Positions 7,785-50,988 of a stretch of DNA of 64,000 nucleotides are shown piece by piece. This DNA is from Candidatus Latescibacterota bacterium. Its GTDB lineage: Bacteria > Latescibacterota > UBA2968. Each line of letters begins with the position of its first letter. Positions within the stretch are counted from its first letter, which is position 1. The notes under the pieces were generated by a model. It did no database searches. It saw only the letters and a program-made list of their open reading frames with translations, and was not told where the DNA came from. The DNA lies in assembly GCA_965116885.1 (NCBI GenBank), contig OZ220741.1:576001-640000 (forward strand). Reading direction: 5' to 3'. Position numbers and translations under genes: made by a program.

Positions 7785-7868
7785 TACGCGAATATATACA
7801 TGTTTTTTTCAGGGAAAATGGGAGGAAAGAATAATTTGGCCTACCATACTACACCAAAAAGAAAGACT

Positions 7869-9602: not shown

Positions 9603-9617
9603 AAGAAAGGAGCACAC

Positions 9618-11021
9618 ATGAGCGAAAGACCCAATATTCTATTCATCATGACCGATGACCATGCATCGCATGCCATGAGTTGTTATAACAGTCGGATTAA
9701 CGAAACGCCCAACCTGGACCGCATCGCAGAAGGTGGCATGCGCTTTAACAACTGCTTTTGCACCAACTCGATCTGCGCGCCGAGCCGGGCGGTAATCTTA
9801 ACCGGCACGTACAATCACATCAACGGCGTAACCACATTGCGCACGAACCTGGACGGGCGACAGGTCACATTTCCCAAACTCCTGCAAGCAGCGGGATACC
9901 AGACTGCAATGGTGGGAAAATGGCATCTCGGGCACGGCGGACACAACGACCCCACCGGATTTGACTACTGGAACGTACTCCCCGGCCAAGGCGCGTATCA
10001 CAACCCCATGATGTACGACATGGGCAAAGAAGTACATTACGAGGGATACACCACAGACATCATAACCGACCTCGCACTGGACTGGCTAAAAGACCGCGAC
10101 AAAAACAAACCCTTCATGCTCATGTATCACCACAAAGCACCCCATCGCCCCTGGGAGCCAGACGACAAACACGCGGACATGTACGAAGACATCGACATCC
10201 CCGAACCCGAAACCCTGTGGGACGACTACAGCAACCGCGCCACAGCGGCATCTCAGGCCGAAATGCGCGTCAACCGCGACCTGAACCCCCGCGACCTGAA
10301 ACAACCCGTCCCCGAAGGTTTAAGTCCCGAAGAAGACATGAGATGGAAATACCAGCGCTACATCAAAGACTACCTGCGCTGTGTGGCATCCGTTGATGAC
10401 AATGTCGGCCGCGTACTGGACTACCTGGACGAAGAAGGACTGACCAACAACACCATCGTCGTCTATACATCGGACCAGGGCTTTTACCTCGGCGACCACG
10501 GCTGGTACGACAAACGCTTTATGTACGAAGAATCCCTCCGCATGCCATTCCTCATTCGGTACCCCAAAGAAATCAAAGCGGGAAGTGTCTGCGACGACAT
10601 GATCCTCAACGTGGATTTCGCATCCACATTCCTGGACTACGCCGGCATAAACATCCCCAGCCATTTTCAGGGACACAGCATGCGCCCCCTGTTAAACGGG
10701 GACCGCCCCGCCTACTGGCGCACCTCAATGTATTACCGCTATTGGATGCACCTGAACGGACACAATATCTACGCGCACTACGGCGTCAGAACGCATCGGC
10801 ACAAACTCATCTACTACTACGCCGACGGATGTGGGCAAGAAGGCGCCTCGGACGACGCCCGAGAACCAGAATGGGAATTATTTGACCTGGACAAAGACCC
10901 GTATGAACTGAACAGCGTCTATCACAACCCGGAATACGCAGAAATAGTCGCCGAACTAAAAGACGAACTCCACCGCTTGCAGGACGAAGTGGGAGATGAG
11001 CGATACGAAAAAGACGTATAA
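9618..11021 (+). CDS. sulfatase (S1 family, Cys-type)
   Basis: [23 protein letters not shown]. Confidence 0.95.
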
Positions 11022-11033
11022 GAGGAGCGATTA

Positions 11034-12380
11034 ATGCCCAATGTCGTATTCATGATGACCGACAACCAGGGGGCCTGGACCCTGGGCTGTTATGGCAACC
11101 CGGACATCCGAACCCCCAACATCGACAGACTTGCAAACGAGGGAATTCGGTTCTCAAACGCCTATTGCGTAAACTCGGTTTGCTCGCCCAGCCGCGCCAC
11201 ATTCATGACCGGACTGATCCCCTCTCAGCACGGCGTACACTGCTACCTCGGCGGAGAAAAACCAGATGCACAAATGGGACCAGACGCGTACTGCACCATT
11301 CGGGAATTTGCAAACCTCCCCCGCGTCATGGCAGACGCGGGCTATGTATGCGGACTGAGCGGAAAATGGCACCTGGGAGACAGCCTGCGGCCCCAGGAAG
11401 GATTTTCATACTGGTTTACCCGACCAAAGGGACACACCACGACATTTTACGACGACGAATGGATCTGGCAGAACCGGGTTTACACAGAACCGCGATACAC
11501 AACCGAAGCCATAACAGAACACGCCCTCGAATTCCTGCGGCAAAACCACCATCAGCCATTTTTTCTCTACGTAGCGTACAACGGTCCCTATGGCCTGGGC
11601 CAGAGCATGCTGGAAACACATCTCAACCAACATACCGAATATTACGCAGACAAAGAACTGCCGAGCTTCCCCAGAGAACCAGTACATCCCTGGCTACGCA
11701 GCAATCGGGACATGATCAACAACCCGGTGAGCATTCGCGGATATGCCGCAGCGGTCAGCGGCGTAGATGACGGGATAGGCGAAATAACAAACGCCTTAAA
11801 AGAATACGACCTGGAAGAAGACACCCTGGTAATTTTCACAGCAGATCAGGGCTGGTGCGGAGGGCATCACGGAATGTGGGGCATGGGAGACCACGCCCGA
11901 CCCCTGCATACTTATGAAGAAACCATCCATATCCCGCTGATATTCCGCCAGCCCGGGCAGATACCGTCGGGCAGGGTATTTGAAGGGCGAACATGCAACT
12001 ACGATTTCTTCCCCTCCGTACTGGACCATCTGGAATTGCGGGAACGAATCGCCGACAACCCCAATCTCCCAGGCACAAGTTATGCCCCGGCACTTATAGG
12101 AGAGGAAATGGCATGGAACAATGAGATATTCCACGAATTTGAAAACACGCGCCTGGTGCGAAATGACCGCTGGAAATACACCTGGCGTCATCCAGATGGC
12201 CCGGATGAGCTATACGACATGCAGGCAGATCCCGGAGAACGCAACAACCTGACGAACCGCTCCCACGCAACAGTCATCAACGAATGTCGCAACCGCATCC
12301 AGAACTTCTTTAACCAGTACGCAGACCCTCAGTACGACCTGTGGCGCGGCGGGCACTCCAAAGCGGGGCGAATCGGATAA
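11034..12380 (+). CDS. sulfatase (S1 family, Cys-type)
   Basis: PNVVFMMTDN, CSPSR, GKWH, ADQG. Confidence 0.93.
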   Translation: MPNVVFMMTDNQGAWTLGCYGNPDIRTPNIDRLANEGIRFSNAYCVNSVCSPSRATFMTGLIPSQHGVHCYLGGEKPDAQMGPDAYCTIREFANLPRVMADAGYVCGLSGKWHLGDSLRPQEGFSYWFTRPKGHTTTFYDDEWIWQNRVYTEPRYTTEAITEHALEFLRQNHHQPFFLYVAYNGPYGLGQSMLETHLNQHTEYYADKELPSFPREPVHPWLRSNRDMINNPVSIRGYAAAVSGVDDGIGEITNALKEYDLEEDTLVIFTADQGWCGGHHGMWGMGDHARPLHTYEETIHIPLIFRQPGQIPSGRVFEGRTCNYDFFPSVLDHLELRERIADNPNLPGTSYAPALIGEEMAWNNEIFHEFENTRLVRNDRWKYTWRHPDGPDELYDMQADPGERNNLTNRSHATVINECRNRIQNFFNQYADPQYDLWRGGHSKAGRIG

Positions 12381-17189: not shown

Positions 17190-17378
17190 TCAATATAGAG
17201 GCAAAAAACCGCAGATCAAACAATTTCCGAACCGACCTTTTTTAGCAAACGTATTGGATTTGCTCTCCTTGCTTTATTATTAGAACAATACTTGCCACAC
17301 CCATGTAAATACCTTATATTAAATTGCTCTAAAATTATAGCTCTAAACCCCTCTAAAATCACCCCAAGAGCCTTCCCA

Positions 17379-17846
17379 ATGAATCTGAATTACAGCCTCC
17401 ACAACGACACAGTAAAACACGTTGATCTCTCCTTTTACGTCGAAGTACAAAAAGACAATTCCGTTGATCAGGTCATCACCAAAATGCAGACCAGCCAGCG
17501 CAAATGCGCGCTGGTCATGGACCAGGGCAAACTAATCGGCATCTTTACAGCACACGATATTGCCCGCCGCGTAATCGACCAATCCAAAGTACTCAACGAG
17601 CCTATAGAAGCGATCATGACCCCCGATCCACTCACTCTGCAATCGGATACCACACTGATCGAAGCCATCCGATTTATGAGCGACAAGCCCCACCGCTACA
17701 TGCCCGTTGTAGATGCAGAAGGGCGCGTATTGGGCACACTGACACACTATGCCATCATCAAATACATGAGCGATCACTTCCCAGAAGAAATCTACAACTT
17801 ACCGCCAACCCCCGACCATTTTGCCAGCGCTCGGGCTGGTGCCTAA
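17379..17846 (+). CDS. stand-alone CBS-pair protein
   Basis: LIGIFTAHDI, IMTPDPLTL, RYMPVVD..GRVLG; start taken at ATG 17379. Confidence 0.85.
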   Translation: MNLNYSLHNDTVKHVDLSFYVEVQKDNSVDQVITKMQTSQRKCALVMDQGKLIGIFTAHDIARRVIDQSKVLNEPIEAIMTPDPLTLQSDTTLIEAIRFMSDKPHRYMPVVDAEGRVLGTLTHYAIIKYMSDHFPEEIYNLPPTPDHFASARAGA

Positions 17847-17864
17847 AATACTTCAGGAGGATTT

Positions 17865-19757
17865 ATGGCCGAAATAGACATCGAAGAAACGGCCGAATCG
17901 GCGCTTTTTGAACTGTCCGAAATCGAATCGATTGCCATTCGCTTTGCAGGTGATTCCGGCGACGGCAGTCAGCTCATCGGCAACGAATTTGCCAACACCT
18001 CGGCAATCGTCGGCAATGACATCAGTACCCTGCCGGACTTCCCCGCTGAAATCCGCGCACCTGCCGGCACATTGCCCGGCGTTAGCGGGTTTCAAATCCA
18101 CATATCCAGCGAAGAAATATATACGCCCGGCGATGAACCCCAGGTCCTCGTGGCGATGAACCCGGCAGCACTCAAAGCCAATATCAACGACCTTCCAAAC
18201 GGCGGCATCGTCATTGCCAACACAGACAACTTCACGCGCAACAACCTGCGCAAAGCCGGATACGACGGCGATCCCCTCGAAGGCAATGAACTCTCCAATT
18301 ACCGCGTAGTCAAAGTTCCCCTCACCACGCTGCACAAAGAAGCTGTCGCACACGTTGAGGGCCTGAGCAATCGCCAGATTGACATGATGAAAAACTTCTT
18401 CGCACTGGGCCTGTCCTACTGGATATTTGACCGCCCGATCGAGCCGACCATTCGCATGCTCGAAAAGAAATTTCAGGGCAAAGACGAAATCATCGACGGC
18501 AATGTGAGCACCCTGAAAGCCGGCTACAACTTTGGTGAAACAGTCGAAGAATTTCAGGTTCAGTACCAGGTTAAAAAAGCCGTCGTCGCACCGGGCACTT
18601 ATCGCGCTGTCACGGGTACACAAGCCACGGCAATAGGCATGGTCACCGCCGCTCACAAAGCGGGCAAAACCCTCTTTTACGGCAGCTATCCCATCACGCC
18701 GGCCAGCGCAGTACTCGAGGAATTGGCCGCATTGAAAAATTTTGACGTGCGAACCTTCCAGGCAGAAGATGAAATTTCCGCACTGGGCTCGGGTATTGGT
18801 GCTGCTTTTGGAGGCGCATTTGCCGCCACGGGCACCAGCGGCCCCGGCATCGCACTGAAAAGCGAAGCCATGAACCTCGCCCTGATGATGGAATTGCCCC
18901 TCGTCATCTGCGACTTTCAGCGCGGCGGTCCCAGCACGGGTATGCCCACCAAAACAGAGCAATCGGACCTGCTCCAATGCATGTTTGGTCGCAATGGCGA
19001 CAGCCCCATCCCCATTGTCTCACCGGCCACGCCCTCAGACTGCTTTGACATGATCATCGAAGCGTTTCGCATCGCCGTTGAAACCATGAGCCCGGTCATT
19101 TTCCTCTCCGATGGATACCTCAACACCAGCGCTGAACCGTGGAAAATTCCCGATCCGGATGATATTCCGACCATTTCAGTCGAGCACAGAACCGATCCCG
19201 AGGGCTTCTTGCCCTATCTGCGAGATCCAAAAACGCTATCTCGTCCCTGGGTACTGCCGGGCACGCCGGGCCTTGAACACAGATTGGGTGGACTGGGCAA
19301 AGAAGACGGCACAGGCAATGTATCCTACGACCCGGATGACAACCAGCACATGGCCAACATACGCGCCGAACGCCTGGCACGCATCGCCGACCGCATTCCA
19401 CTCCAGCACGTCATGGGTCCCAAATCGGGCGATTTGCTCGTCCTGGGCTGGGGATGTACTTATGGCTCAATCCGCTCAGCAGTGCGTAGAATGCGACAGC
19501 AAGGCTATTCGGTAGCCGCGGCGCATCTGCGCTACCTCAACCCATTCCCCAAAAACCTGGGCGCGATATTATCGAGTTACAAAACCGTACTCGTTCCCGA
19601 ACTCAACATGGGACAGTTGTCTTTGCTGCTTCAGGCCAAATATCCCTCACAGGTCATCGTTCCCTTCAATAAAGTTCAGGGATTGCCCTTCAAAATTACA
19701 GAAATCTCCGGCAAAATTGCCGAAATACTGGGTGCTCCAAAGAGCGCATCGTTATAG
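17865..19757 (+). CDS. korA: 2-oxoacid:ferredoxin oxidoreductase alpha subunit
   Basis: IRFAGDSGDG, YPITPAS, QAEDEI, TSGPG, QRGGPSTGMPTKTEQSD. Confidence 0.93.
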   Translation: MAEIDIEETAESALFELSEIESIAIRFAGDSGDGSQLIGNEFANTSAIVGNDISTLPDFPAEIRAPAGTLPGVSGFQIHISSEEIYTPGDEPQVLVAMNPAALKANINDLPNGGIVIANTDNFTRNNLRKAGYDGDPLEGNELSNYRVVKVPLTTLHKEAVAHVEGLSNRQIDMMKNFFALGLSYWIFDRPIEPTIRMLEKKFQGKDEIIDGNVSTLKAGYNFGETVEEFQVQYQVKKAVVAPGTYRAVTGTQATAIGMVTAAHKAGKTLFYGSYPITPASAVLEELAALKNFDVRTFQAEDEISALGSGIGAAFGGAFAATGTSGPGIALKSEAMNLALMMELPLVICDFQRGGPSTGMPTKTEQSDLLQCMFGRNGDSPIPIVSPATPSDCFDMIIEAFRIAVETMSPVIFLSDGYLNTSAEPWKIPDPDDIPTISVEHRTDPEGFLPYLRDPKTLSRPWVLPGTPGLEHRLGGLGKEDGTGNVSYDPDDNQHMANIRAERLARIADRIPLQHVMGPKSGDLLVLGWGCTYGSIRSAVRRMRQQGYSVAAAHLRYLNPFPKNLGAILSSYKTVLVPELNMGQLSLLLQAKYPSQVIVPFNKVQGLPFKITEISGKIAEILGAPKSASL

Positions 19758-19769
19758 AGGAATCCAAAC

Positions 19770-21311
19770 ATGGCAGACGCTATTGAAACACTGACGCGAA
19801 AAGACTTCGTATCCGACCAGGAAGTGCGCTGGTGCCCCGGTTGTGGCGATTACGCCATCCTCGCACAGATGCAGCGCGTGTTGCCCGAAATGGGCATTGC
19901 GCGAGAAGATATGGTCTTTATATCGGGCATCGGTTGCTCCAGCCGCTTCCCCTATTACATGAACACGTACGGTCTGCACACCATTCACGGTCGTGCGGCA
20001 ACCGTGGCGACTGGCCTCAAAGTGGCCAATCCCGACCTCCACGTATGGGTAATAACCGGCGATGGCGACAGCCTATCCATTGGCGGCAATCACCTGTTGC
20101 ATGTGCTGCGTCGCAATGTCGATCTCAACATCATACTCTTCAACAATGCGATCTACGGCCTCACCAAAGGACAATACTCACCCACATCGCCACCGGGCAC
20201 GCGCACCTATTCGTCGCCCATGGGCTCTGTGGAACAGGACTTCAATGCCATCTCCGTTGCCCTGGCAGCCGAAGCCACCTTTGTCGCCCGCAGTGTTGAC
20301 CGCAACACCAAGCACATGGCCGAGATTCTCAAACGCGCCACAGAACATCGGGGCACATCCTTTGTCGAAATTTACCAGAACTGCAACATCTACAACGACG
20401 GTGCCTGGTTTTTTGCCACCGAGGCAGATGTCAAAGACGATCAAACCGTGATCCTCGAACACGGCCAACCCATCATTTTTGGCAAAGACCGCGACAAAGG
20501 CATCCGCGTCAATGGACTCGCGCCCGAAGTCGTCACCCTGGGCAATGGCGTTTCGGAAAGTGACTTGCTCACACACGACGAAACCCTGGACAATCCAGCC
20601 CATGCGTATTTGCTCAGCCGCCTCACACATCCGGAATATCCCGTACCATTCGGCGTATTTCGCTGTGTCGAACGTCCAATTTACGAAGAGCAAATCATCG
20701 CACAGGGCCGCCAGGCAGTTGAAGACCGCGGCGCAGGCGACCTCAATGCACTGTATCACGCGGCAGACACCTGGATTGTTCCCGAAGGTCCCGACGCCGA
20801 AACCGTGCAAGAAGTCCACGAAGAATTGCCCACATCAAATATCATTCCCGATATCGATCAAGAAGACCCCATGGCACCGCGCACCGCGCTTCAGCAACTG
20901 CTCTACGATCCGATCTCATCGCTCGATCTGCCAGCACCCGAATGCGTATCCGCCGAGACCTCGGTAGCCGATGCCGTCGAGATCATGCGCAGCAAAAATC
21001 TGGGATGTTTGCTGGTCGTTAACAAACAGGGCTTGTTGCGCGGCATATTCGCACAGGGCGATCTCTTTGAAAAAGTTGCCGGGCGCGATATAGACCTGAC
21101 AAAAATAACGGTCGATAGCCTGATGACCAAAGATCCCACTGCATTGAAAACATCTGATCCCATCGGTCATCTCCTGCACCTGATGTCTCTGCACGGCTTC
21201 CGCCACATACCCATTGTAGATCCCGATGGGCGTCCCGTGGGCCTGGCATCCTTCAAAGTCATGCTCAAGTTCACCGGCGGCCTCTTCTCAGAAGACATAT
21301 CCCCCAACTAA
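19770..21311 (+). CDS. korB: 2-oxoacid:ferredoxin oxidoreductase beta subunit fused to a C-terminal CBS pair
   Basis: WCPGCGD, SGIGCSSR, HGRA, GDGD..IGGNH, YGLTKGQ; after an acidic linker, CBS motifs LLRGIF, LMTKDP, FRHIPIVD. Confidence 0.9.
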   Translation: MADAIETLTRKDFVSDQEVRWCPGCGDYAILAQMQRVLPEMGIAREDMVFISGIGCSSRFPYYMNTYGLHTIHGRAATVATGLKVANPDLHVWVITGDGDSLSIGGNHLLHVLRRNVDLNIILFNNAIYGLTKGQYSPTSPPGTRTYSSPMGSVEQDFNAISVALAAEATFVARSVDRNTKHMAEILKRATEHRGTSFVEIYQNCNIYNDGAWFFATEADVKDDQTVILEHGQPIIFGKDRDKGIRVNGLAPEVVTLGNGVSESDLLTHDETLDNPAHAYLLSRLTHPEYPVPFGVFRCVERPIYEEQIIAQGRQAVEDRGAGDLNALYHAADTWIVPEGPDAETVQEVHEELPTSNIIPDIDQEDPMAPRTALQQLLYDPISSLDLPAPECVSAETSVADAVEIMRSKNLGCLLVVNKQGLLRGIFAQGDLFEKVAGRDIDLTKITVDSLMTKDPTALKTSDPIGHLLHLMSLHGFRHIPIVDPDGRPVGLASFKVMLKFTGGLFSEDISPN

Positions 21312-23266: not shown

Positions 23267-24133
23267 ATGACCCAAACCATTTCCTTACGCGACCTGGACT
23301 TCCAGTCCAAAGACATCGACATACAACGTGCAGCCGAGGCATTCAAAGCGCATGGCGCGATAGTCGTGCGGGGATTGCTCCGCGAATACATCGACGCGCT
23401 TAACCGCGACATCGAAGCCACAGCCACGCAATCTCTCGCCCTCCTCGATCAAGCCAGCGCAATACCCGAAGGATGGCGCACGCCCAACAACACCCTCTTC
23501 ATACCCGCGCCTGAAAATTACGAACGCGACCGACAAATCATGGTCCTGGGCATCAACTACAACACCAGCGCCACCTTCTTGCGCTCGGCATTTCACCCCC
23601 CCACCCTCGACATCGTCGAAGCCATCCTCGGCCCCAACATCGAAATCTACGGCAACGGGCAATGCCTCTACAAAGAACCCGTCGGAGGCCACCCCAAACA
23701 CCTGCATCAGGACTCGGCCTATTTCGAACACCGGTACGAAGGACCCGTTGGCATCCTCACCTACGTCGTCCCCACCGACCTCAACAACGGTGCCCTCCAC
23801 GTCGTCCCCGGCTCTCACAAACTGGGGCAACTCGACCACATCGACACCTTCTCGCACCTGGGACTCGCAGACCGCGAATGGCCCTGGGAGCGTGCCCTCC
23901 CAATACCCGGTCAACCCGGTGACGCCATCTTCTTCCACGTCAAAACCGTTCACGGCTCCAAACAGAACCACTCGAACAAACCCCGCCCCGTCTTCATACA
24001 CCGCTACCGCAGAGCAGATGACTATGTCGTCATACGCGGCACCACCACAAAAAACCGCGCAGAATCGTCAAAGCGTCCGGTGGAAATAAAAAAAGAAAAT
24101 GGATTTATGGTGCGCGGCTTTCGGCCATATTAA
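23267..24133 (+). CDS. phytanoyl-CoA dioxygenase (PhyH) family Fe(II)/2OG dioxygenase
   Basis: HQD...NGALHVVPGSH...PGDAIFFH...HGS..N...R. Confidence 0.88.
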   Translation: MTQTISLRDLDFQSKDIDIQRAAEAFKAHGAIVVRGLLREYIDALNRDIEATATQSLALLDQASAIPEGWRTPNNTLFIPAPENYERDRQIMVLGINYNTSATFLRSAFHPPTLDIVEAILGPNIEIYGNGQCLYKEPVGGHPKHLHQDSAYFEHRYEGPVGILTYVVPTDLNNGALHVVPGSHKLGQLDHIDTFSHLGLADREWPWERALPIPGQPGDAIFFHVKTVHGSKQNHSNKPRPVFIHRYRRADDYVVIRGTTTKNRAESSKRPVEIKKENGFMVRGFRPY

Positions 24134-24395: not shown

Positions 24396-24443
24396 TTGAC
24401 TTTATTGCTTAATCTATATATCGTCCATAGTCTATATATCGTC
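24396..24443 (+). promoter_or_regulatory. sigma70-like promoter overlapped by 13-bp direct repeats
   Basis: TTGACT-N17-TATCGT; TCTATATATCGTC at 24413-24425 and 24431-24443. Confidence 0.55.
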
Positions 24444-24537
24444 TTTTATAGAGTCTGCTTATGCACGCCCTTCATCTATATAGGGCCACCGCAAGTTTTA
24501 AAAGATTTTTCGTCATAGTAGATATAGAAACACATAC

Positions 24538-26505
24538 ATGCTGAGATTTGCTGAAGAAATACTACTGCTCCTCCACGACGAAGACCGGGGCGATTTCGCA
24601 CCCGGTCTTGCACAGCACGCGTTGAATATCGCTCTTGCCGGGGCCGTATTGATGGATTTGGCCCTGGAAAACCGCATCGATACCGATCTCGAGCATCTCT
24701 TTTTGGCTGATGCCACGCCTCTTGAAGACGACCTGCTCGATCCCACCCTTGCCGACATCGCACGCGATACGGACACACGAGACACCAACTATTGGCTCGC
24801 ACAAACGACCAAACGGGGCGACGAAATCCGCGATAAAGCACTTACGCGTTTGGTCAACCGGGGCATATTGGAAGCTGAGTCCGAAGATATCTTTCTCCTC
24901 TCTCGCCTGGTGTCGCGCTCCCGCCGCTATCCAACCATTGATGGAAAAACATTAGAAGAAGTCCGGTTGCGCATTATGCGCGTACTGTTCACCGATGAAA
25001 TTCCGGACCCACGCGACATCGTCATTATCTGTCTGGCGGATGCCTGCGGCGTTTTCAAGAATATTTTATCCCAGTCAGAACTATCGGAGGTACAAGAACG
25101 GATCGAACTGATTCGCAAAATGGACCTGATCGGCCAATCGGTTACCAAAGCGATCCGCGAGCATGAGCCTCCTACCCCTGTCCCTACTCCACGCAAAGAG
25201 ATACCTCAGGCACCGGGGTTGCCGCTTATTGGCAACACCATCGGCATGACGCGCGATTTGGGCTCGCTTCTCGTCAAACAATACCGAAACTTAGGTCCGA
25301 TTTTTCGCATCAAGGCATTCAATCGCCGTTTCGTCGTCCTCGTAGGTCCCGAGGCGAATACCTTCGTAAAGCGAGGGGGTAAGTACCTGCGCACGCTTGA
25401 AAACTGGGTGGATTACAACAAAGCTGGGGGCGTCGGACGTAGCATAATCAGCATGGATGGTCCCGACCATATTCGCCTGCGCAAAGAACTGGCGGATGTG
25501 TACACCCACCGCCTCATTGAAGGTCGTGTGGGAGACGCTGTCCACGTTCTTCAACAAGATATCGCCGGATGGCCCCAGGACAAGCCGCTGCCGGGCTTAT
25601 ACACCTGGCAGCGCATCGTCTTAGATCAGATCGGTGTACTGGCTCTCAGCATGCCTGTACACGACTACTTAGACGACATTATGATTTATTTTCAAAGCAA
25701 GATGAAAACCTATGTCATGCGGCAGCAACCCAGGCTGATGTTATATCGACCACGCGTCCGGCGTGCCTTCAAGCGAGTGGAAGAACTGGCTCAGCGCATT
25801 CTGGCAGATCACGAACCAGAAAAACGCCGCAACAAGCCACCGGATGCCATTGACCATTTGCTGGAACTGCACCGCAGGGATCCGCAATTTCTTCCCGAGA
25901 CCGATTTAGACATGTTGGGACCTCTCTCGGCCGGTCTCGATACCGTGGCAAATATCTGTGCCTTCATGTTCTACGAATTATTGAAGCGACCGGATCTGCG
26001 CGAGCAGGTAATTGCTGAAGCAGACGCCCTCTTTGATCAGGGTATGCCTACCGTGAACGATCTGCGTCAACTCGACGTCCTGCACCGCACGACAATGGAA
26101 ATAATACGCCTCTATCCCCTTGCGCCAGTAATGTCATTGCGCACAGTAGCCAACTCATTTGAATTTGAGGGCTATAAGGTCCCCGCTGGCGAGACCCTTC
26201 TGATTGGATTCACAATACCGCACCGGATGCCGGAATATTTCCCCAATCCGGAGCGCTTCGATATCGACCGCTACACCGCAGAACGCGCTGAGCACCGCCA
26301 GCACGGGGTCTATGTCCCCTTCGGCTTAGGAGCGCATCGGTGCCCAGGCAACAGGCTCGCCGAGGTGCTCATTGCGCTCAACATGGCGACCGTCCTCCGC
26401 GAAGCCGAATTGGTTCTCCATCCGCCCGATTGCGAATTGAAGACCAAACGAAGCTATGCCCTCCTACCCAACTACAAGTTCCGCCTGGTGCGTCGGCACC
26501 GATAG
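24538..26505 (+). CDS. GPP34/GOLPH3-like domain fused to cytochrome P450
   Basis: N-terminal FAEEILLLLHDE..G...LAGAVLMDLALENRI (GPP34-like); P450 motifs PGLPLIGN, AGLDT, EIIR, PERF, FGLGAHRCPG. Confidence 0.88.
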   Translation: MLRFAEEILLLLHDEDRGDFAPGLAQHALNIALAGAVLMDLALENRIDTDLEHLFLADATPLEDDLLDPTLADIARDTDTRDTNYWLAQTTKRGDEIRDKALTRLVNRGILEAESEDIFLLSRLVSRSRRYPTIDGKTLEEVRLRIMRVLFTDEIPDPRDIVIICLADACGVFKNILSQSELSEVQERIELIRKMDLIGQSVTKAIREHEPPTPVPTPRKEIPQAPGLPLIGNTIGMTRDLGSLLVKQYRNLGPIFRIKAFNRRFVVLVGPEANTFVKRGGKYLRTLENWVDYNKAGGVGRSIISMDGPDHIRLRKELADVYTHRLIEGRVGDAVHVLQQDIAGWPQDKPLPGLYTWQRIVLDQIGVLALSMPVHDYLDDIMIYFQSKMKTYVMRQQPRLMLYRPRVRRAFKRVEELAQRILADHEPEKRRNKPPDAIDHLLELHRRDPQFLPETDLDMLGPLSAGLDTVANICAFMFYELLKRPDLREQVIAEADALFDQGMPTVNDLRQLDVLHRTTMEIIRLYPLAPVMSLRTVANSFEFEGYKVPAGETLLIGFTIPHRMPEYFPNPERFDIDRYTAERAEHRQHGVYVPFGLGAHRCPGNRLAEVLIALNMATVLREAELVLHPPDCELKTKRSYALLPNYKFRLVRRHR

Positions 26506-26522
26506 CGAAATGGAGTGTCAAA

Positions 26523-27641
26523 ATGCCCACTAAGAAGCCACGCGCTCACCCAAATACGACCGCACCGTTGCGCGTTTGGGCGAAGCTACTCTGGGGCCAG
26601 GACGGGGTGAGGGTTGCGCCCCAGCACCGGGGACGAGTAAGGCGAATTCTCCTTGGCTCGGCCCTGATGGTACCGCTACGCTTGATCGAAAAGATGCGCT
26701 ACGGGCGCGCCGTAGCTCGGACGAAAATTGCGCATCCACCGATCTTTATCATCGGCCATGCCCGCTCGGGCACGACGCACTTGCACTATCTCCTGACGCG
26801 CGATCCGCAGTTCGCAATCGTCTCGTTGTTCCAATCCATCGCCCCGACATTCTTTCTGATCGGCCGTGGTTGGATCAAGCGTTTCATGGCCAAACAGCTC
26901 AAGCCAAAACGTCCGCAGGATGATGTCGAACTGGCGATGGACCTGCCGAATGAGGAGGAATTCGCGATTGCCAATTCCTCTGAGCTATCCAACGTTCACT
27001 TCCTTACATTCCCATCCAGGACGACGGAATACTTTGAAAAATATATCTTCATGAGGGGGCTGACTGAGCGGCAACAGGCGCGCTGGGATGCCGTCATCAC
27101 GGACATCATTAAAAAAGCCACCCTTGCGGGCGGTGGAAAACAGTTGGTACTCAAAAGCCCCTCCAACACCGGCCGAATTCCCCACCTCCTGCGCCTTTTC
27201 CCCAATGCCAGGTTCATTCATATCGCAAGAAATCCAGGCGATGTCTATTACTCGACAAACCATACATTAAGAAAGATGTTTGAGTTGTTCCTGCTGGAGG
27301 AGCATCCGGGCGATTTTTCGGATTTCGTCATCACCGAGTACAAGGCTCTAATGGAACAATACCTGAAAGACAGAGCTTTGATCCCAGAAGGCAATCTGGC
27401 GGAAGTGAAGTACGAGGACCTCGTAGCTGATCCACTGGGCGAAATGGAACGCATCTACGCGGCACTCGGATTGTCTGGTTGGGAAAGCGGAGGAAAGCAG
27501 GCTGTGGTCGAATACCTGAACACGCTTTCGGACTACCAAAAAAATACATTTGAACCGGACCCCGCCGCTATGGAGCGCGTCTCACGGGCCTGGCGATTTG
27601 CTTTCGAAGAATGGAATTATGAACTACCGGTGAAGCCATAG
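26523..27641 (+). CDS. PAPS-dependent sulfotransferase (Stf3-like)
   Basis: RBS GGAG + ATG 26523; PPIFIIGHARSGTTHLH, RPQD, PNEEE, LKSP, FPNARFIHIARNP, YEDLVADP. Confidence 0.88.
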   Translation: MPTKKPRAHPNTTAPLRVWAKLLWGQDGVRVAPQHRGRVRRILLGSALMVPLRLIEKMRYGRAVARTKIAHPPIFIIGHARSGTTHLHYLLTRDPQFAIVSLFQSIAPTFFLIGRGWIKRFMAKQLKPKRPQDDVELAMDLPNEEEFAIANSSELSNVHFLTFPSRTTEYFEKYIFMRGLTERQQARWDAVITDIIKKATLAGGGKQLVLKSPSNTGRIPHLLRLFPNARFIHIARNPGDVYYSTNHTLRKMFELFLLEEHPGDFSDFVITEYKALMEQYLKDRALIPEGNLAEVKYEDLVADPLGEMERIYAALGLSGWESGGKQAVVEYLNTLSDYQKNTFEPDPAAMERVSRAWRFAFEEWNYELPVKP

Positions 27642-27679
27642 ACTGGCCCAACCTATGTGCCAGTTTTAGATGAATTACT

Positions 27680-28420
27680 CTAAAAATCCCTCGCATTAGC
27701 CTCCACCATCACCTCAACAGCTACCAGATGCGCTGCAACGCGCACATCCATCGGTTGTGCAGTCGGGCTTTCTGACGTCACCAGATGACCCGTATGCCCT
27801 CTCTGATACAAAGCAATCGGTATGCCCTCCCCGTACTTCCGCCTCGACACCTCCATATTGGGATGAATCACCCCATTGACCGCAACCTCGCCCTCAATCT
27901 CGGCCTCTTTGTTAATCGGACACACCTGTGCCACCCGCTTCACCATCTCCCGTCCCAGGGATTCTCTGTCCCCAAACATCTCGTACAGATAAAACCCCGG
28001 ACTCTCCCAATCCTCGTGCAAATCGATCACACCCGCAAAAACCCGTCCTTCCACAAACCCCTTCAAAATCTCAATCTCGGGCACATCATCGCGCAAAAAC
28101 GCCCAATTCACATCCACCTCCTGTGCATTGAGCCGCGCATTGTGAACATAGCTCCACGGGCACAAACACGGAACAACCTCAAAACGCACCCGATCAGCCC
28201 AGCGTTCCCATCCCCCCTCCAAAAAAGCCAGCGCAGCCTCCACGCCAGCCGGTTCATCGCCGTGCGTCCCCCCATTGATATACACAACAGGTGTGTCTCC
28301 CTTGCCAGCAGACACGCGCAAAACCGGCAAACCTTCAACCTCCCCCAACTCGTACACATCAACACCAGACACAGCTTCCACGCGCTTAACAACAGCATCG
28401 TAATCCCGTTGACCCATCAC
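27680..28420 (-). CDS. M14 family metallocarboxypeptidase / succinylglutamate desuccinylase-like
   Basis: GTHGDEPAG (HxxE), IDLHED, TSESP. Confidence 0.85.
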   Translation of the reverse strand: MMGQRDYDAVVKRVEAVSGVDVYELGEVEGLPVLRVSAGKGDTPVVYINGGTHGDEPAGVEAALAFLEGGWERWADRVRFEVVPCLCPWSYVHNARLNAQEVDVNWAFLRDDVPEIEILKGFVEGRVFAGVIDLHEDWESPGFYLYEMFGDRESLGREMVKRVAQVCPINKEAEIEGEVAVNGVIHPNMEVSRRKYGEGIPIALYQRGHTGHLVTSESPTAQPMDVRVAAHLVAVEVMVEANARDF

Positions 28421-29376
28421 ATATCCCGAAGCGCGTCAATCACCCGCGCGTGAATCTCGCGGGCACTCACCACCACCCCACGATTGTCCTCCATCTGAGC
28501 AGCAGACGAAAAATCCAGCGGCCTACCAAACATATCGCTCACCTCTCCACCGGCTTCCTCAACAATAAGAGCACCCGCAGCGTGATCCCAGATATTCTCG
28601 CGATAGCCCGGAGATTCTGGCGACGGCAACCTCAAATACAACGCCGCATCGCCGCGAGCCACCGCGCCGTATTTCACCTGACTATCCATCCTGAGCGACG
28701 GCGAAACAATCCCAACCGCACGAGCCACCGCTTGCTGTGCATCGAAATCGCAGTGTGACGGCTCCACGCTCTCCGCAAACCGCCATGCAGGGTCATCAAT
28801 GTGAATATCAACACCATCCCCACCTGCAAGAGACATCGCTCGTGTGCCCTCTCCCCGCACCGCCACAAATAACACCCCACAATCACCCTCCACCTCCTCC
28901 ATATCCACGGGCAGAGCCGGACACGCCAGCGCGGCAACCTTCACCTCCTCGCAATCGACGAGCGCCAGAGCCACCGCATATTGATCTCCGCGCAAAAAGC
29001 CCTTTGTGCCATCAATGGGATCGAGCGTCCAGAAACGCTCTGCAACATCCCCATTACCCGCATCAATCCAGTCGCAAATGGTATTTTCATCCGCCTGTGC
29101 ATACGTCCGAACAAACCCGCACACAGTCTTCCGCATCGCAGCTTGCTCCGCACCCCGAAGCACCGACGCATCTTCCTCTGCCACAATCGGATCATTGGGA
29201 AAAACCGACTTTAATCGCCGGCACACAAGCGCCTGCGAGCCAAAATCCGCAACCGTCACCGGACTGCGATCCTCCTTCTCCATCGCTCCAACAAGTGATT
29301 TTCGCACATCGACACAAAGCCGAGCCGCCTCGCGCACAGCCTCAACAGCGACCTCGCGCTCCCGATCATATCCCAT
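28417..29376 (-). CDS. 3'(2'),5'-bisphosphate nucleotidase, HAL2/Met22 type
   Basis: SPVTVADF, AEED, WTLDPIDGTKGFLRGDQYAVALA, RMDSQVKY, ENIWDHAAG. Confidence 0.9.
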   Translation of the reverse strand: MGYDREREVAVEAVREAARLCVDVRKSLVGAMEKEDRSPVTVADFGSQALVCRRLKSVFPNDPIVAEEDASVLRGAEQAAMRKTVCGFVRTYAQADENTICDWIDAGNGDVAERFWTLDPIDGTKGFLRGDQYAVALALVDCEEVKVAALACPALPVDMEEVEGDCGVLFVAVRGEGTRAMSLAGGDGVDIHIDDPAWRFAESVEPSHCDFDAQQAVARAVGIVSPSLRMDSQVKYGAVARGDAALYLRLPSPESPGYRENIWDHAAGALIVEEAGGEVSDMFGRPLDFSSAAQMEDNRGVVVSAREIHARVIDALRDM

Positions 29377-29384
29377 AAACACCC

Positions 29385-30284
29385 CTATTTCTTTTTTTCA
29401 CCAAAATGATCCATCTCGCCGCGATCAATCCAACCCGGCAACCTGATCTTCTCCGACATCTTCCACGCCGTCAAATAAAGTGAAACTGTAAAACCCGCCG
29501 CCCGCTTTGCATGCATCTCCGCAAATGTACGCACCGCAGGCTCATTCTTCCAATCTATATCCTTTGGAATCAGAAACTGCTCCATAGACAGCGCAGACTC
29601 AACCTCATCAAAACTCTCGTGCATCTGTGCCACAATACCCACCATCAAACTATCCACAGGCGCAGCAGTCAAACCCTCGGCAATATCTTCGGGTCTCAAA
29701 TCCAAATTTTGAAGCAACCCATCAATCTTTTCGTGAATACGCGTCATCGACGACTTGCCATCTACAACCCGACCATTCCAGTGAATCGTCAAATTCAGAG
29801 GTTGACAAATCTCCTGAGCAAAATGCGCCACATACCCGGCGTATATCAGACACTTATTCTGGATAAACGGACTCTCGGGCCACTTGCGAAACTCTGCAAA
29901 TGCCAGAGCCAGTTGCCCGGTATATTCCGCCGTCACGTACGGCAACAAACCCACCTGTTCTGGCCTCTTCCCCAACTCTGCACAGCGTCTTGCAAACGCG
30001 TACCGAGACGCGGGCAAATCCTCCGCCTCAAACAACTCCATATTAAAATAATGAACCGGATGACCAGCCTTTTCCAGATGAAGCGTACCGCGATTCTTTG
30101 CAACATCCGGATCAACAGCCGCATGAGCCACCATACCTGTGCCAGCCCTGAGAAAAGCAGGCGCATCTGCCGGAAGCGCCTGAACAGCCGCCCGCGTCAA
30201 AATGCCATGCCCTCGCGGCCACCAGCCCCAGGCGGACGACCCGAATACAAATAGAATAAGTAATACCATACCTAATCGACGCAT
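29385..30284 (-). CDS. secreted S1/P1 nuclease / zinc phospholipase C-fold protein (paralog 2)
   Basis: RBS AAGGAG, signal peptide then WWPRGH, DPD, HPVHY, HFAQEICQPLN, IHEKID. Confidence 0.65.
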   Translation of the reverse strand: MRRLGMVLLILFVFGSSAWGWWPRGHGILTRAAVQALPADAPAFLRAGTGMVAHAAVDPDVAKNRGTLHLEKAGHPVHYFNMELFEAEDLPASRYAFARRCAELGKRPEQVGLLPYVTAEYTGQLALAFAEFRKWPESPFIQNKCLIYAGYVAHFAQEICQPLNLTIHWNGRVVDGKSSMTRIHEKIDGLLQNLDLRPEDIAEGLTAAPVDSLMVGIVAQMHESFDEVESALSMEQFLIPKDIDWKNEPAVRTFAEMHAKRAAGFTVSLYLTAWKMSEKIRLPGWIDRGEMDHFGEKKK

Positions 30285-30300
30285 TGAAAATCTCCTTGAA

Positions 30301-30407
30301 CGAATAGACGAATAGACGAATCGAACTCCGCCCCACACCCACGGGCGGGCACAGGGGCACCGCCCCTACATTGATGAACCGGCATGAACCAGTTATACAC
30401 CGCTCCG
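30301..30407 (+). repeat. composite REP-like repeat family A, copy 2
   Basis: (GAATAGAC)n...GGGCGGGCACAGGGGCACCGCCCCTACATTGATGAAC. Confidence 0.85.
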
Positions 30408-30413
30408 CGTTTT

Positions 30414-31307
30414 TTACTTCCCGTCCCAAATCTCTCGCTTCACATAATCTGCAATCTCCAAACGCTCGGACAGTCGCCAGGCAGTCAAATAAAGCCGCGC
30501 AGTAAACCGCGTCGCAGCCCGGGCGCGATCTTTTGCAAAAGCGATCACCTCGGCATTCGGTACCCAATTCTCCTCATCATATCTGGGAATATTCGGCCCC
30601 ATTTCATAAACCCGATCAACCAGTGCAAACCCCTCCTCAAACTCCCGCATAATCTCAGACATCACATCATCAAAAGGGGTCACATCCTGATCGCGCGACA
30701 AATCCCCTGGCTCCATCTTCAAAAACTGCACCAGACCATCCACCTTCTGGTGAATACCCCTCTGCAACTTCTCGCCCCCCTCCTGCACGCGCCCATCGTA
30801 GTGAATCGTCAAATGCAAAGGCTGACACATATCCTCGGCATAATGCGCGAGAAAACCCGCATAAATCAGGCACTTACTCTGAATATGCGGATTATCGGGC
30901 CACTTGCGAAACTCTGCAAAAGCCACCGCTAAGCGCTCTGTCCACTCATTCACCGCATAAGGCACAAAACCCATCTTCTCGGGCGACACCCCGTGCTCAT
31001 AACACAACTTGACAAACGCGTATCGACTCGCTGGCAACGTCTCCACATCGAGCATCTCGCGATCCAAAAAATGCTCGGGATACTCTGCCCCTCGCACCTG
31101 CGGCGTACCCCGATTCTTGCCCATATCGGGGTCAATACTCAAATGCGCCACCGTCTTTGCCCCCTGCCTGAAAAACGCCGGAACTTCATCGGGCAAAGCC
31201 GCCACAGCGGACAAAGTCAAAATATGGTGCCCTTCCAGCAACCAGCCTCGAGCGGGAGAACACAACCCTGCCAAAAGCAAAACAGAAATAGCAAATCGTT
31301 TGAACAT
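30414..31307 (-). CDS. secreted S1/P1 nuclease / zinc phospholipase C-fold protein (paralog 1)
   Basis: RBS AGGAGG, signal peptide then WLLEGH, DPD, EHFLD, HYAEDMCQPLH, IHQKVD. Confidence 0.72.
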   Translation of the reverse strand: MFKRFAISVLLLAGLCSPARGWLLEGHHILTLSAVAALPDEVPAFFRQGAKTVAHLSIDPDMGKNRGTPQVRGAEYPEHFLDREMLDVETLPASRYAFVKLCYEHGVSPEKMGFVPYAVNEWTERLAVAFAEFRKWPDNPHIQSKCLIYAGFLAHYAEDMCQPLHLTIHYDGRVQEGGEKLQRGIHQKVDGLVQFLKMEPGDLSRDQDVTPFDDVMSEIMREFEEGFALVDRVYEMGPNIPRYDEENWVPNAEVIAFAKDRARAATRFTARLYLTAWRLSERLEIADYVKREIWDGK

Positions 31308-31378
31308 TAATACCTCCTGTAAATGCATAGGCAACCACAAATGGACACTGATGAACACAGAGGGAAAGGCAAAACCTT

Positions 31379-31601: not shown

Positions 31602-32645
31602 TCACGCTCGTACCTCAATCTCACCGGGATATTCTGCAACCACCTCGCCAATATCTCGAGCCATCACACCGCGATCGTCCAACGACTCAAGAAAAGCATC
31701 AGCCACATCGGGCGCAAGTGCAATCAACAGACCGCCAGAAGTCTGCGGATCAAAAAACAAACGCCTCAAAGCCTCATCAACATCATCGGCAAATCGCACC
31801 GCATGCCCGCGCGCCGCCCGATTGCGCCGCAAACCCCCGCCCTCGCGCCCCTCTGCAATCTGCAAAGCCAGATCAAAACGCGGCACATCAGAAGCACGTA
31901 TGCGAATCCCAACGCCACTCGCCTGCGCCATCTCCAACCCATGCCCCAGCAACCCAAACCCGGTAATATCCGTACATCCACCCGCATTATATGCAACCAT
32001 CTCCTCGGCTGCGATGCGATTCAACTGCACCATAGAATCCACCGCAATCTGCAACGCATCTTCATCGATCTCACCATTTTGATAGGCATCCGACATCAAA
32101 CCCGTACCCAGCGGCTTGGTCAGAATCAGACGATCTCCCACCCGGGCGCCCGCATTGGTCTTCACATCGTCTGGATGCACAACCCCCGTCACAGACAACC
32201 CGAACTTGGGTTCCACATCCTCCACAGAATGCCCGCCGACCAAAACCGCGCCAGACTCCGCCACCTTCTCCTGCGCCCCTCTTAAAACCTCGGCAATCAC
32301 CTCTGGCTCGACGTCATCACTCGGAAACCCGCAAATATTCAGCGCAGTAATCGGGCGCCCCCCCATCGCATACACATCGCTCAGTGAATTGGCTGCGGCA
32401 ATCTGCCCATACGCATGCGGATCATCGACAATAGGCGTAAAAAAATCCACCGTCTGAATAAGCGCCACATCCTCAGAAATCCGAAACACCCCGGCATCAT
32501 CAGCCGTATTCATCCCCACCATCAAATCGGGATGCGCCACAGGCGTCAACTTTTTTAGAATCACATCCAGCACCGCTGGATCGAGTTTCGATGCTCAACC
32601 ACCGCAACTGACGAGCTGAGTCAATCTTCTACCGCGATACTTCAT
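31602..32645 (-). CDS. selD: selenide, water dikinase; selenoprotein (UGA codon 17)
   Basis: MKYRGRRLTQLVSCGG-U-ASKL in frame with ORF 31602-32573; DDAGV, TVDFFTPIVDDP, ANSLSDVYAMGG, TDITGFGLLGH, DPQTSGGLL. Confidence 0.95.
32565..32581 (-). promoter_or_regulatory. SECIS-like hairpin of selD
   Basis: ATCCAGC-GGT-GCTGGAT, 13 nt after the UGA at 32597-32595. Confidence 0.7.
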
Positions 32646-44982: not shown

Positions 44983-45744
44983 CTACCGACAACAGCGGAA
45001 CCCGATATCCTTCCCCTGCCATCTGGGACTGAGACGTCCGCGCTCTTGCACCCGCACGGCTGGTGCGCCATTTACCCAACTGCCGCCGCGCATCACGCGC
45101 AAGCTCCCGCTCTCTGGTCCCTGGGGATTTTCCCGCGGACTATTGCGATAATAATCCACGCGGTGCCAATCCGCCACCCACTCCCACACATTGCCCGACA
45201 AATCCGCCACCTCAAAAGGACTCATACCATTGGGAAAACTGCCCACAGTCGAGGGCTTGCCCACATGCCCATTAAAATTCAACCGCGTCGGATCGGGATC
45301 CTCATTGCCCCAGGGATAAATACGCCCATCGCCACCCGCAGCCTTTTCCCACTCCGCCTCGGAACACAACCGCTTGCCTGCCCACGCGCAAAAATCCTGT
45401 GCATCAAACCAGGTCACACCAACCACCGGTTGCCGCGCGGCATTAAACCCCACAGAATCGGCACAAGCCGAAGGATCGCGCCCTGTAGTCGCAACAAATA
45501 ATCTGTAATCCGCGTTCACCACCTCAAAGCGATCAATCCAGAAAGCATCCAAAAACACCACATGCTCGGGACCTTCGTCCCGCCCATATTCATTGGTCCC
45601 CATCACAAATTCGCCCGCTGGAATTTCGACCATCTCCTCAATCAACTCGCCCTCTGATTCTGGCTGAACGGGATAATCATCACCGCAACCAGCCAGCAAC
45701 CCCATCCCAATGAGCACGCACAAAAATTTCAAAATATCGCCCAT
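44983..45744 (-). CDS. FGE-sulfatase (SUMF1/EgtB/PvdO) domain lipoprotein
   Basis: Lipobox LAGC, IPAGEFVMG, RLCSEAEWEKAA, GNVWEW, RGGSW, IGFRC. Confidence 0.88.
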   Translation of the reverse strand: MGDILKFLCVLIGMGLLAGCGDDYPVQPESEGELIEEMVEIPAGEFVMGTNEYGRDEGPEHVVFLDAFWIDRFEVVNADYRLFVATTGRDPSACADSVGFNAARQPVVGVTWFDAQDFCAWAGKRLCSEAEWEKAAGGDGRIYPWGNEDPDPTRLNFNGHVGKPSTVGSFPNGMSPFEVADLSGNVWEWVADWHRVDYYRNSPRENPQGPESGSLRVMRGGSWVNGAPAVRVQERGRLSPRWQGKDIGFRCCR

Positions 45745-50909: not shown

Positions 50910-50988
50910 ACAAACTCCCTTCATTATATCTATTCAAAAGCTACAAAAATCATGATCATCAACCACTATAATACACCCATCCAATACC

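Follow-up and report, generated by a model that had tools for sequence, protein, structure and literature searches.

The 64,000-nucleotide stretch analysed here (the window; positions 576,001 to 640,000 of contig OZ220741.1, from a Candidatus Latescibacterota bacterium) contains a gene that joins a GPP34 domain to a complete cytochrome P450 and is followed on the same strand by a sulfotransferase gene. We consider it probable that the two genes form one transcription unit encoding a cytoplasmic, membrane-peripheral cassette that would hydroxylate and then sulfate its substrate, most probably a sterol or polycyclic triterpenoid. The domain architecture, the linkage of the two genes, the specificity of the pair, its co-inheritance, the loss of a phosphatidylinositol 4-phosphate (PI4P) pocket and the presence in sponge RNA libraries are direct observations, from which we infer the order of the reactions, the class of substrate and the role of GPP34. 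The parts of the cassette are as follows.

24538..26505, + strand: GPP34-cytochrome P450 fusion gene (655 aa), an open reading frame (ORF) with Pfam matches; member of the published GPP34_L family
24550..25161, + strand: GPP34 domain (Pfam), residues 5-208, a presumably non-catalytic N-terminal module
25162..25206, + strand: Pro-rich linker, residues 209-223, reading EPPTPVPTPRKEIPQAPGLP
25207..26475, + strand: P450 catalytic domain, residues 224-646, with AGLDT, EXXR and the haem ligand Cys602 (codon 26341-26343)
26506..26522, + strand: 17-nt spacer between the fusion and sulfotransferase genes, with a GGAG ribosome-binding-like motif
26523..27641, + strand: sulfotransferase of the type using 3'-phosphoadenosine 5'-phosphosulfate (PAPS), 372 aa, Sulfotransfer_3, starting at ATG 26523

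Pfam matched GPP34 (PF05719) at residues 5-208 of the fusion with an E-value of 1.9e-36 (126.4 bits against a cut-off of 29.1; profile positions 2-200 of 201) and P450 (PF00067) at residues 224-646 with an E-value of 3.1e-53 (182 bits). The P450 motifs are intact, with the acid-alcohol pair of the I-helix in AGLDT (465-469), the EXXR motif as EIIR (521-524) and the FxxGxxxCxG haem loop as FGLGAHRCPG (595-604), and the gene stops at TAG 26503-26505. The first-pass annotation of this DNA had read a GPP34-like N-terminal domain, a Pro-rich linker and a complete P450 with these three motifs, all of which are present. Among the 120 best clusters in a 5.8-billion-protein collection, 54-99% identical to the window protein, 118 carry both Pfam domains, and the architecture is therefore not a product of chance or misassembly; names among these clusters are few, just 'cytochrome P450', and come from metagenome-assembled genomes (MAGs). 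An AlphaFold2 model of the full-length protein (mean predicted local distance difference test score, pLDDT, 89.9; predicted template modelling score 0.82) has a P450 fold and a GPP34 part made of a helical core with paired strands at residues 111-121. The linker is its sole low-confidence stretch (mean pLDDT of 60 for the block of residues 211-220), and in 54 fusions this segment spans 15-38 aa with a median of 24. Ratios of nonsynonymous to synonymous substitution (dN/dS) were 0.09-0.22 for GPP34, 0.28-0.39 for P450 and 0.22 for the sulfotransferase, indicating that both domains of the fusion are under purifying selection. Within the same gene pairs (against L001 and L072, two related loci in our numbering), dS itself differs 2-4-fold, being 0.40-0.50 in the GPP34 part and 0.12-0.21 in the P450 part, which suggests recombination or gene conversion between paralogous cassettes.

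The architecture has been catalogued before. Ferreira et al. (Microbiome 2025;13:4; PMC11706023) applied the name GPP34_L to proteins combining GPP34 with cytochrome P450 (656 of 663 long forms), reported the family to be expressed and exclusive to sponge symbionts of many phyla, and proposed that GPP34 proteins are secreted PI4P-binding effectors that interfere with phagosome maturation. The window gene is a member of this family, sharing its size, its habitat and its two-domain architecture, with an N-terminal GPP34 and a C-terminal P450 in one polypeptide. The main text of PMC11706023 analyses flanking genes for the short form only and gives no enzymatic reading, whereas the neighbours, the pocket and the sterol context described below point to lipid tailoring inside the bacterium. 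Neither 'sulfotransferase' nor 'sterol' occurs in its main text or in one supplementary spreadsheet, the PDF supplement lying outside that check, and a full-text literature search found no other paper linking GPP34 with a sulfotransferase, or a sponge-symbiont P450 with sterol and sulfotransferase. The view of the first-pass annotation that no characterised GPP34-P450 fusion is known thus stands for biochemistry but not for the architecture itself.

We then compared the P450 domain with solved structures. Its best sequence matches in the PDB were the CYP51 entries 6mi0, 7jj1 and 6mcw (E about 4e-34), which cover only domain residues 185-406; the N-terminal half of the domain matched CYP51 with an E-value of 7.3. 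CYP51, represented by the Methylococcus capsulatus CYP51-ferredoxin (6mcw, 7jj1, 7snm) and the human enzyme (3jus), also led the fold lists for model residues 217-655 at 19-25% identity, followed within about 2 Z by P450 BM3, CYP184A1, CYP170A1, CYP90B1 and CYP46A1. The I-helix of CYP51 carries the signature AGQHTS or AGHHTS (AGHHTS in 6mi0), in contrast to AGLDT in the fusion. The half-length alignment, the AGLDT I-helix, the low identity and the near-equal scores of other families rule out orthology with CYP51, a sterol 14alpha-demethylase. As judged from sequence and model, the P450 is a CYP51-like enzyme and not a CYP51, and the predicted fold alone does not fix its substrate.

The sulfotransferase is a clear member of its class, with a Sulfotransfer_3 match (PF13469) at an E-value of 8.4e-38 (131 bits against a cut-off of 27) and a Sulfotransfer_1 match at 2.1e-12. 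The longest ORF call begins at GTG 26340 and overlaps the P450 gene, an unlikely start; from TAG 26505 to ATG 26523 the spacer measures 17 nt, as the first-pass annotation had counted it. Six residues, R81, G83, T85, E144, R236 and S244, do not vary among 16 partner sulfotransferases. We take R81, G83 and T85 to form the 5'-phosphosulfate loop (GxxRSGTT-like) and R236 and S244 to be the Arg...Ser pair that binds the 3'-phosphate, so that the profile match, the loop and the pair of a PAPS-dependent enzyme are all found. An N-terminal extension of about 70 aa is conserved among the partner sulfotransferases as well. Among solved structures, the window enzyme is most closely related to 2z6v (E 1e-20) and 2zq5 (E 2e-14), presumably mycobacterial Stf proteins, an identity that our literature search did not confirm, and next to tyrosylprotein and polyketide sulfotransferases. 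The label 'Stf3-like' given to the gene earlier is thus appropriate only at the level of the broad sulfotransferase group.

The genome from which the window comes (one contig, 5.56 Mb, 98.4% complete) holds four GPP34 domains, namely one short form and three fusions, A, B and C. Its two strong Sulfotransfer_3 matches are the genes beside fusions A and B, and the two sulfotransferases are 86% identical in protein; the existence of this second copy suggests that the pair was duplicated as a unit. Both flanks of the paralogue B pair (L072:5739-7877 and L072:11689-14406) are occupied by large leucine-rich-repeat proteins, beyond which lie two near-identical sigma-54 activators with Reg_prop/Y_Y_Y sensor domains. 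In the window's genus, 9 of 21 genomes contain matches to a profile built from the partner sulfotransferases, 13 genes in all. Twelve of these adjoin a GPP34-P450, singly or in tandem arrays with two or three members, and the thirteenth sits 1.2 kb from a contig end. The GPP34-P450 family is patchy by genus (9 of 49 genera). Distances between fusions and between sulfotransferases correlate across 14 pairs (Mantel r 0.77, reached in 0 of 2000 permutations), which fits inheritance of the pair as a unit.

Public sequencing runs gave evidence on transcription and habitat. The stretch is wholly or partly present in 20 runs of 10 studies, and 15 of the runs are labelled sponge metagenome, the sponge-associated occurrence expected of a GPP34_L member. 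Contigs from the runs were aligned to the window at 90-99% likeness. Contigs of two metatranscriptome runs of one study cover 24447-27817 and 24452-27502, with gaps, and the stop/start junction between fusion and sulfotransferase is bridged by contigs of three RNA libraries, X18, X19 and X20 (two studies; little of the stretch is present in X20). The contigs of the two metatranscriptome runs start at 24447 and 24452, and those of a DNA run extend further upstream; X18 and X19, both of one study, have no contig on 23908-24438. These starts are a weak hint of a transcript start near 24447/24452.

We next surveyed relatives of the fusion and their neighbours. An exhaustive search of representative proteins returned 566 at E <= 1e-30, among them full-length fusions with as little as about 29% identity and unfused P450s (about 450 aa, 32-46% identity). 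At least 610 stretches in species-representative genomes encode relatives, and the best 80 of these yielded 67 loci, from MAGs whose titles name Latescibacterota, Binatia, Gemmatimonadota, Vicinamibacterales, Chloroflexota/SAR202, Paracoccaceae, Gammaproteobacteria and Entotheonella, among others. All ORFs of these loci, the window and the two paralogous loci of the same genome were clustered and named by Pfam; the truncated loci L032 and L064 were dropped, leaving 69 homologous genes in 68 loci, with neighbours counted within 2.5 kb as follows.

Sulfotransfer_3: 21 of 69 genes
Acyl_transf_3 membrane acyltransferase: 15 of 69 genes
APH or ecdysteroid-kinase-like (EcKL) kinase: 8 of 69 genes
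AMP-dependent acyl-CoA ligase: 6 of 69 genes
None of these four partner types: 21 of 69 genes

A conjugating or activating enzyme thus lies near 48 of the 69 genes, two of which have two partners. The partners mostly sit immediately before or after the fusion and share its strand, and P450 oxidation would create the hydroxyl or carboxyl group on which all four types act. In a rapidly built maximum-likelihood tree of all 69 proteins, partner type is clustered (21 changes against 39.6 when shuffled, reached by 0 of 200 shuffles), and sister clades switch partner, the window clade being all sulfotransferase and the sister clade L004/L005 acyltransferase. A partner stands beside 47 of 57 GPP34-bearing genes and beside 1 of 12 unfused homologues, a comparison for which the Fisher p of 2e-6 is not a valid test because it holds only 2-3 phylogenetically independent contrasts. 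The co-occurrence survey that the first-pass annotation had called for therefore finds the fusion-sulfotransferase linkage recurring in MAGs titled several phyla, and the hydroxylate-then-sulfate module predicted there is strengthened by this recurrence, by the specificity within the genus and by the bridging contigs. Two candidates from the survey were discarded: a 1024-aa frame in L063 that resembled a sulfotransferase-GPP34-P450 triple fusion has no sulfotransferase domain, and no docking motif in the partner N-termini is common to the four partner classes. Other domain arrangements occur in one set of relatives (P0223, P0265, P0268, P0126), which combines unfused P450-domain proteins carrying two C-terminal cyclic-nucleotide-binding domains with one protein that has two GPP34 domains ahead of the P450.

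The substrate class is suggested by the genes around a paralogue and around relatives. Fusion C lies among an RND pump, a Sterol_MT_C methyltransferase and a Rieske/KshA_C oxygenase, whose sole NCBIfam match is a weak one to the 4beta-methylsterol monooxygenase SdmA (E 4e-8, far below the cut-off). Around paralogue C in 16 genomes of the phylum, the fusion adjoins the RND gene in 16 cases, the methyltransferase gene in 11 and the Rieske oxygenase gene in 13. Locus L053 combines two tandem fusions with an acyltransferase, a sterol-methyltransferase homologue (41% identity) and a 1128-aa gene fusing squalene epoxidase to oxidosqualene cyclase (TIGR01787, 504 bits against a cut-off of 323), and in L062 a cyclase homologue lies between fusion and sulfotransferase. 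Sterol methyltransferases and fused monooxygenase/cyclase genes have been described in sponge-symbiont bacteria (Brown et al., Nat Commun 2023; PMC10070321), in a main text where P450 does not occur (0 occurrences). Paralogue C and L053 resemble these clusters in adjoining Sterol_MT_C methyltransferases, and the fused gene of L053 is of the type named in that paper; the window's genome differs from them in keeping a sterol methyltransferase but no cyclase. A Pfam model and tblastn found no squalene or oxidosqualene cyclase in this single-contig, 98.4% complete genome, so any sterol substrate would have to be acquired, most probably by uptake from the sponge host. The suggestion of the first-pass annotation that a host sterol-like compound might be modified gains support from the sterol genes beside paralogues and relatives and from this missing cyclase.

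The GPP34 domain was compared with its eukaryotic homologues. A single-sequence PDB search with the window domain returned noise only, whereas a profile of 25 fused GPP34 domains matched GOLPH3 (3kn1, E 6e-10), 9qpq (E 1e-9) and Vps74 (2zii, 4tu3 and 2zih, E 4-8e-9) over nearly the full length, indicating that the homology is real. In GOLPH3 the PI4P pocket is lined by W81, R90, R171 and R174, and the double mutants W81A/R90A and R171A/R174A lose PI4P binding (Wood et al. 2009; PMC2806290). By profile alignment the window equivalents are L24, A34, D95 and R98, so that three of the four pocket residues are replaced. At the R90 site, 47 of 54 fusions have Ala and none has a basic residue (Arg or Lys); 37 are acidic (Asp or Glu) at the R171 site, and 32 retain Arg at the R174 site. 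For the W81 site, a less certain column beside a gap, the listed residues are aliphatic, Phe or Pro, and Trp is not one of them. All four GPP34 domains of the genome show the same pattern, the short form included. Other arginines are conserved (R104 in 47 of the 54, R145 in 51, R188 in 50). Unlike GOLPH3 and Vps74, the domain is thus fused to an enzyme, sits in a bacterium and has lost most of the pocket, and the GOLPH3-like, PI4P-dependent membrane targeting proposed by analogy in the first-pass annotation is not supported. Neither the fusion nor the sulfotransferase protein has a hydrophobic segment or a signal-like N-terminus, and searches of the genome for three secretion markers (VirB4, TssC and FHIPEP) found none, all of which argues for a cytoplasmic location.

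Several observations count against a sterol-directed hydroxylate-then-sulfate cassette. The lead of CYP51 in the fold comparison is narrow, with the fatty-acid hydroxylases P450 BM3 and CYP184A1 and with terpene P450s within about 1-2 Z or at a similar E-value. There is no sterol gene in the window's own operon, the sterol link running through a paralogue and relatives. Linkage to a sulfotransferase is a minority pattern (21 of 69 genes), equalled by the genes with none of the four partner types (21 of 69), and the 68 loci, drawn from the best 80 of at least 610 matches, are biased to relatives and not independent. Correlated distances of fusion and sulfotransferase can also come from shared descent, RNA libraries can hold DNA, and contigs cannot show one transcript. 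No redox partner is fused to the P450, and a motif scan of small ORFs up to 4 kb from the fusion in 70 loci returned spurious frames only.

One alternative is that the cassette tailors an endogenous isoprenoid lipid such as menaquinone, a carotenoid or a polyprenol. Its model is the mycobacterial cyp128-stf3 operon, which is thought to hydroxylate and then sulfate dihydromenaquinone-9 to give the sulfomenaquinone S881 (PMC6469627). The gene logic is the same: P450 and sulfotransferase are adjacent and co-oriented in one operon, and here the spacer is short, RNA-library contigs bridge the junction and the linkage recurs. The best solved sulfotransferase relatives, 2z6v and 2zq5, would fit this view if they are Stf proteins, as would a UbiE/MenG-like methyltransferase 2.3 kb upstream of the fusion, and a self-made, non-cyclic lipid would need no uptake by a genome that has no cyclase. 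However, that methyltransferase scores far below the menaquinone-family cut-offs, and the lipid genes beside relatives and paralogues are sterol and cyclase genes, not quinone genes. Moreover, the patchy occurrence by genus and the reported restriction to sponge symbionts (PMC11706023) are more readily explained by a substrate specific to the habitat than by a housekeeping lipid. The systems also differ in that CYP128 lacks GPP34, whereas the window P450 is, among solved structures, closest to the CYP51 type, and in that cyp128-stf3 is confined to mycobacteria, whereas GPP34-P450 spreads over MAGs titled many phyla. The window substrate is probably not a quinone, and we regard an endogenous lipid as rather unlikely.

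We give a similarly low probability to a detoxification route, in which lipophilic host defence metabolites or xenobiotics would be oxidised and conjugated, as in phase I and phase II metabolism, and then exported. Sulfotransferases, APH/EcKL kinases and O-acyltransferases are enzyme types for inactivation by conjugation, exporters are common near the fusions (8 loci have an MFS cluster, and RND, MMPL and ABC genes occur as well), and partner class switches between the window clade and the closely related L004/L005. On the other hand, the neighbouring genes for sterol methyltransferase, oxidosqualene cyclase and cyclase belong to biosynthesis or tailoring and not to detoxification, and the 1:1 partnership with correlated divergence suggests a dedicated substrate. 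The published proposal, in which a secreted effector would use its GPP34 domain to bind host PI4P and disturb phagosome maturation, can draw on the real homology to GOLPH3/Vps74, on a family reported as sponge-symbiont-restricted and expressed (PMC11706023) and on eukaryote-like leucine-rich-repeat proteins flanking paralogue B and occurring in the window, but it is very improbable for these fusions, in which the pocket residues needed according to mutagenesis (PMC2806290) are replaced, a signal-like N-terminus and any of the type III/flagellar, type IV or type VI secretion markers sought in the near-complete genome are missing, and a P450 in need of haem and reducing partners shares its operon with PAPS-, ATP- or CoA-dependent cytoplasmic enzymes.

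Flanking features of the cassette are listed next.

23267..24133, + strand: PhyH-family Fe(II)/2-oxoglutarate dioxygenase (Pfam PhyH, E 2.9e-27), directly upstream of the fusion
24396..24424, + strand: weak promoter-like site TTGACT-17-TATCGT (consensus scan)
24410..24487, + strand: 16-nt unit (TAATCTATATATCGTC and variants) present as three direct copies within the intergenic region of 404 nt
28417..29382, - strand: HAL2-type 3'(2'),5'-bisphosphate nucleotidase, a phosphatase of 3'-phosphoadenosine 5'-phosphate (PAP; TIGR01330, 298 bits against a cut-off of 267)

The consensus scan found 2 sites where 3.3 were expected, and the promoter-like site is thus no more than chance. The 16-nt repeat is a possible operator; the region upstream of the fusion is not conserved before the orthologues L001-L003 or paralogue B. 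PhyH genes recur beside the fusion in L002, L003, L005 and L023, and the upstream dioxygenase is a possible second oxygenase. In the close relative L003, the interval from the PhyH gene to the fusion contains a duplicated fragment (L003:7256-7459) 91% identical to the C-terminus of the 246-aa protein encoded downstream at window 27680-28420, which suggests rearrangement at the cassette border. A 2-oxoacid:ferredoxin oxidoreductase pair (17292-21311, +), whose beta subunit has two C-terminal CBS domains and which is preceded by a separate CBS-pair protein, represents a ferredoxin-reducing enzyme 3-7 kb upstream of the P450; this neighbourhood is kept only in close relatives. The PAP phosphatase, a possible accessory removing the by-product of sulfotransfer, sits in a convergent neighbouring operon, an arrangement shared solely by L002 and L003, both close relatives. 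Sulfur accessory genes are also found in other lineages, with CysN/CysC beside the cassette in L055 and a Na/sulfate symporter beside an unfused P450 homologue in L012, and an APS-kinase (adenosine 5'-phosphosulfate kinase) homologue lies elsewhere in the window's genome.

Other genes of the window were noted in passing. A leucine-rich-repeat protein, four sulfatases and a formylglycine-generating enzyme lie at 7800-12380, 44983-45744 (-), 49509-50924 (-) and 52078-53523, alongside a GH2 glycosidase at 53641-55425; together these genes look like a sulfated-glycan degradation set in the same window as a sulfating cassette. Tandem paralogues at 29385-30338 and 30414-31358 (-) are 44-46% identical to each other and match no Pfam family at normal thresholds, and their atlas neighbours are clusters from Acidobacteriota and Poribacteria in which S1/P1 nuclease or Zn-phospholipase C is a minority annotation. 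The SelD gene at 31602-32645 (-) likely starts at ATG 32645 and has an in-frame TGA at 32595-32597 (...SCGG-TGA-ASK...); this codon sits at the catalytic Cys/selenocysteine place, and SelD is therefore probably a selenoprotein. The ORF call from GTG 32573 misses its N-terminus, and family models match that call only from position 20-26.

Returning to the hydroxylate-then-sulfate cassette, we propose the following model. Electrons from a ferredoxin system would reach the P450 domain, which the GPP34 module would hold at the membrane or at the substrate. GPP34 would thereby replace the membrane anchor of eukaryote-style P450s, docking on membrane, lipid or a partner protein, with the GOLPH3 PI4P pocket not used. 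The P450 would hydroxylate a sterol-like, lipophilic substrate of isoprenoid type, the sulfotransferase would move sulfate from PAPS to a hydroxyl of the product, and the neighbouring phosphatase would remove PAP. The anionic, sulfated product might stay in the envelope or be exported. The cassette would represent a modular family whose members combine the fusion with different enzymes, namely a sulfotransferase, as here, or a membrane O-acyltransferase, an ecdysteroid-kinase-like kinase or an acyl-CoA ligase.

The literature so far contains a single functional proposal for GPP34_L, host phagosome manipulation through PI4P. For a family reported as a hallmark of sponge symbionts, the alternative put forward here is a modular enzyme system within the bacterial cell for the oxidation and subsequent conjugation of sterol-like lipids. 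A broader extension, which we offer tentatively and think doubtful as a whole, is that symbionts of many phyla use GPP34-P450 cassettes to convert host sterols into the hydroxylated and sulfated, acylated or phosphorylated steroids of sponges, with GPP34 as an ancient module that docks lipid-modifying enzymes on a membrane or partner and not a PI4P reader. In this extension GPP34, whose presence goes with that of a conjugating partner (47 of 57 against 1 of 12), may hold P450 and transferase together, as GOLPH3/Vps74 do with Golgi transferases. If the proposed sterol-tailoring role inside the bacterium is correct, the family would supply candidate genes for the sulfated, polyhydroxylated steroids of sponges, whose makers are, to our knowledge, not known. 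Sulfated and polyhydroxylated steroids have been isolated from sponges repeatedly (PMC6723502, PMC7551063, PMC8145587), and bacterial sterol-modifying steps would then enter the debate on sponge sterol biomarkers (PMC10070321). It would also suggest what the GPP34 domain did before eukaryotes put it to use in the Golgi.

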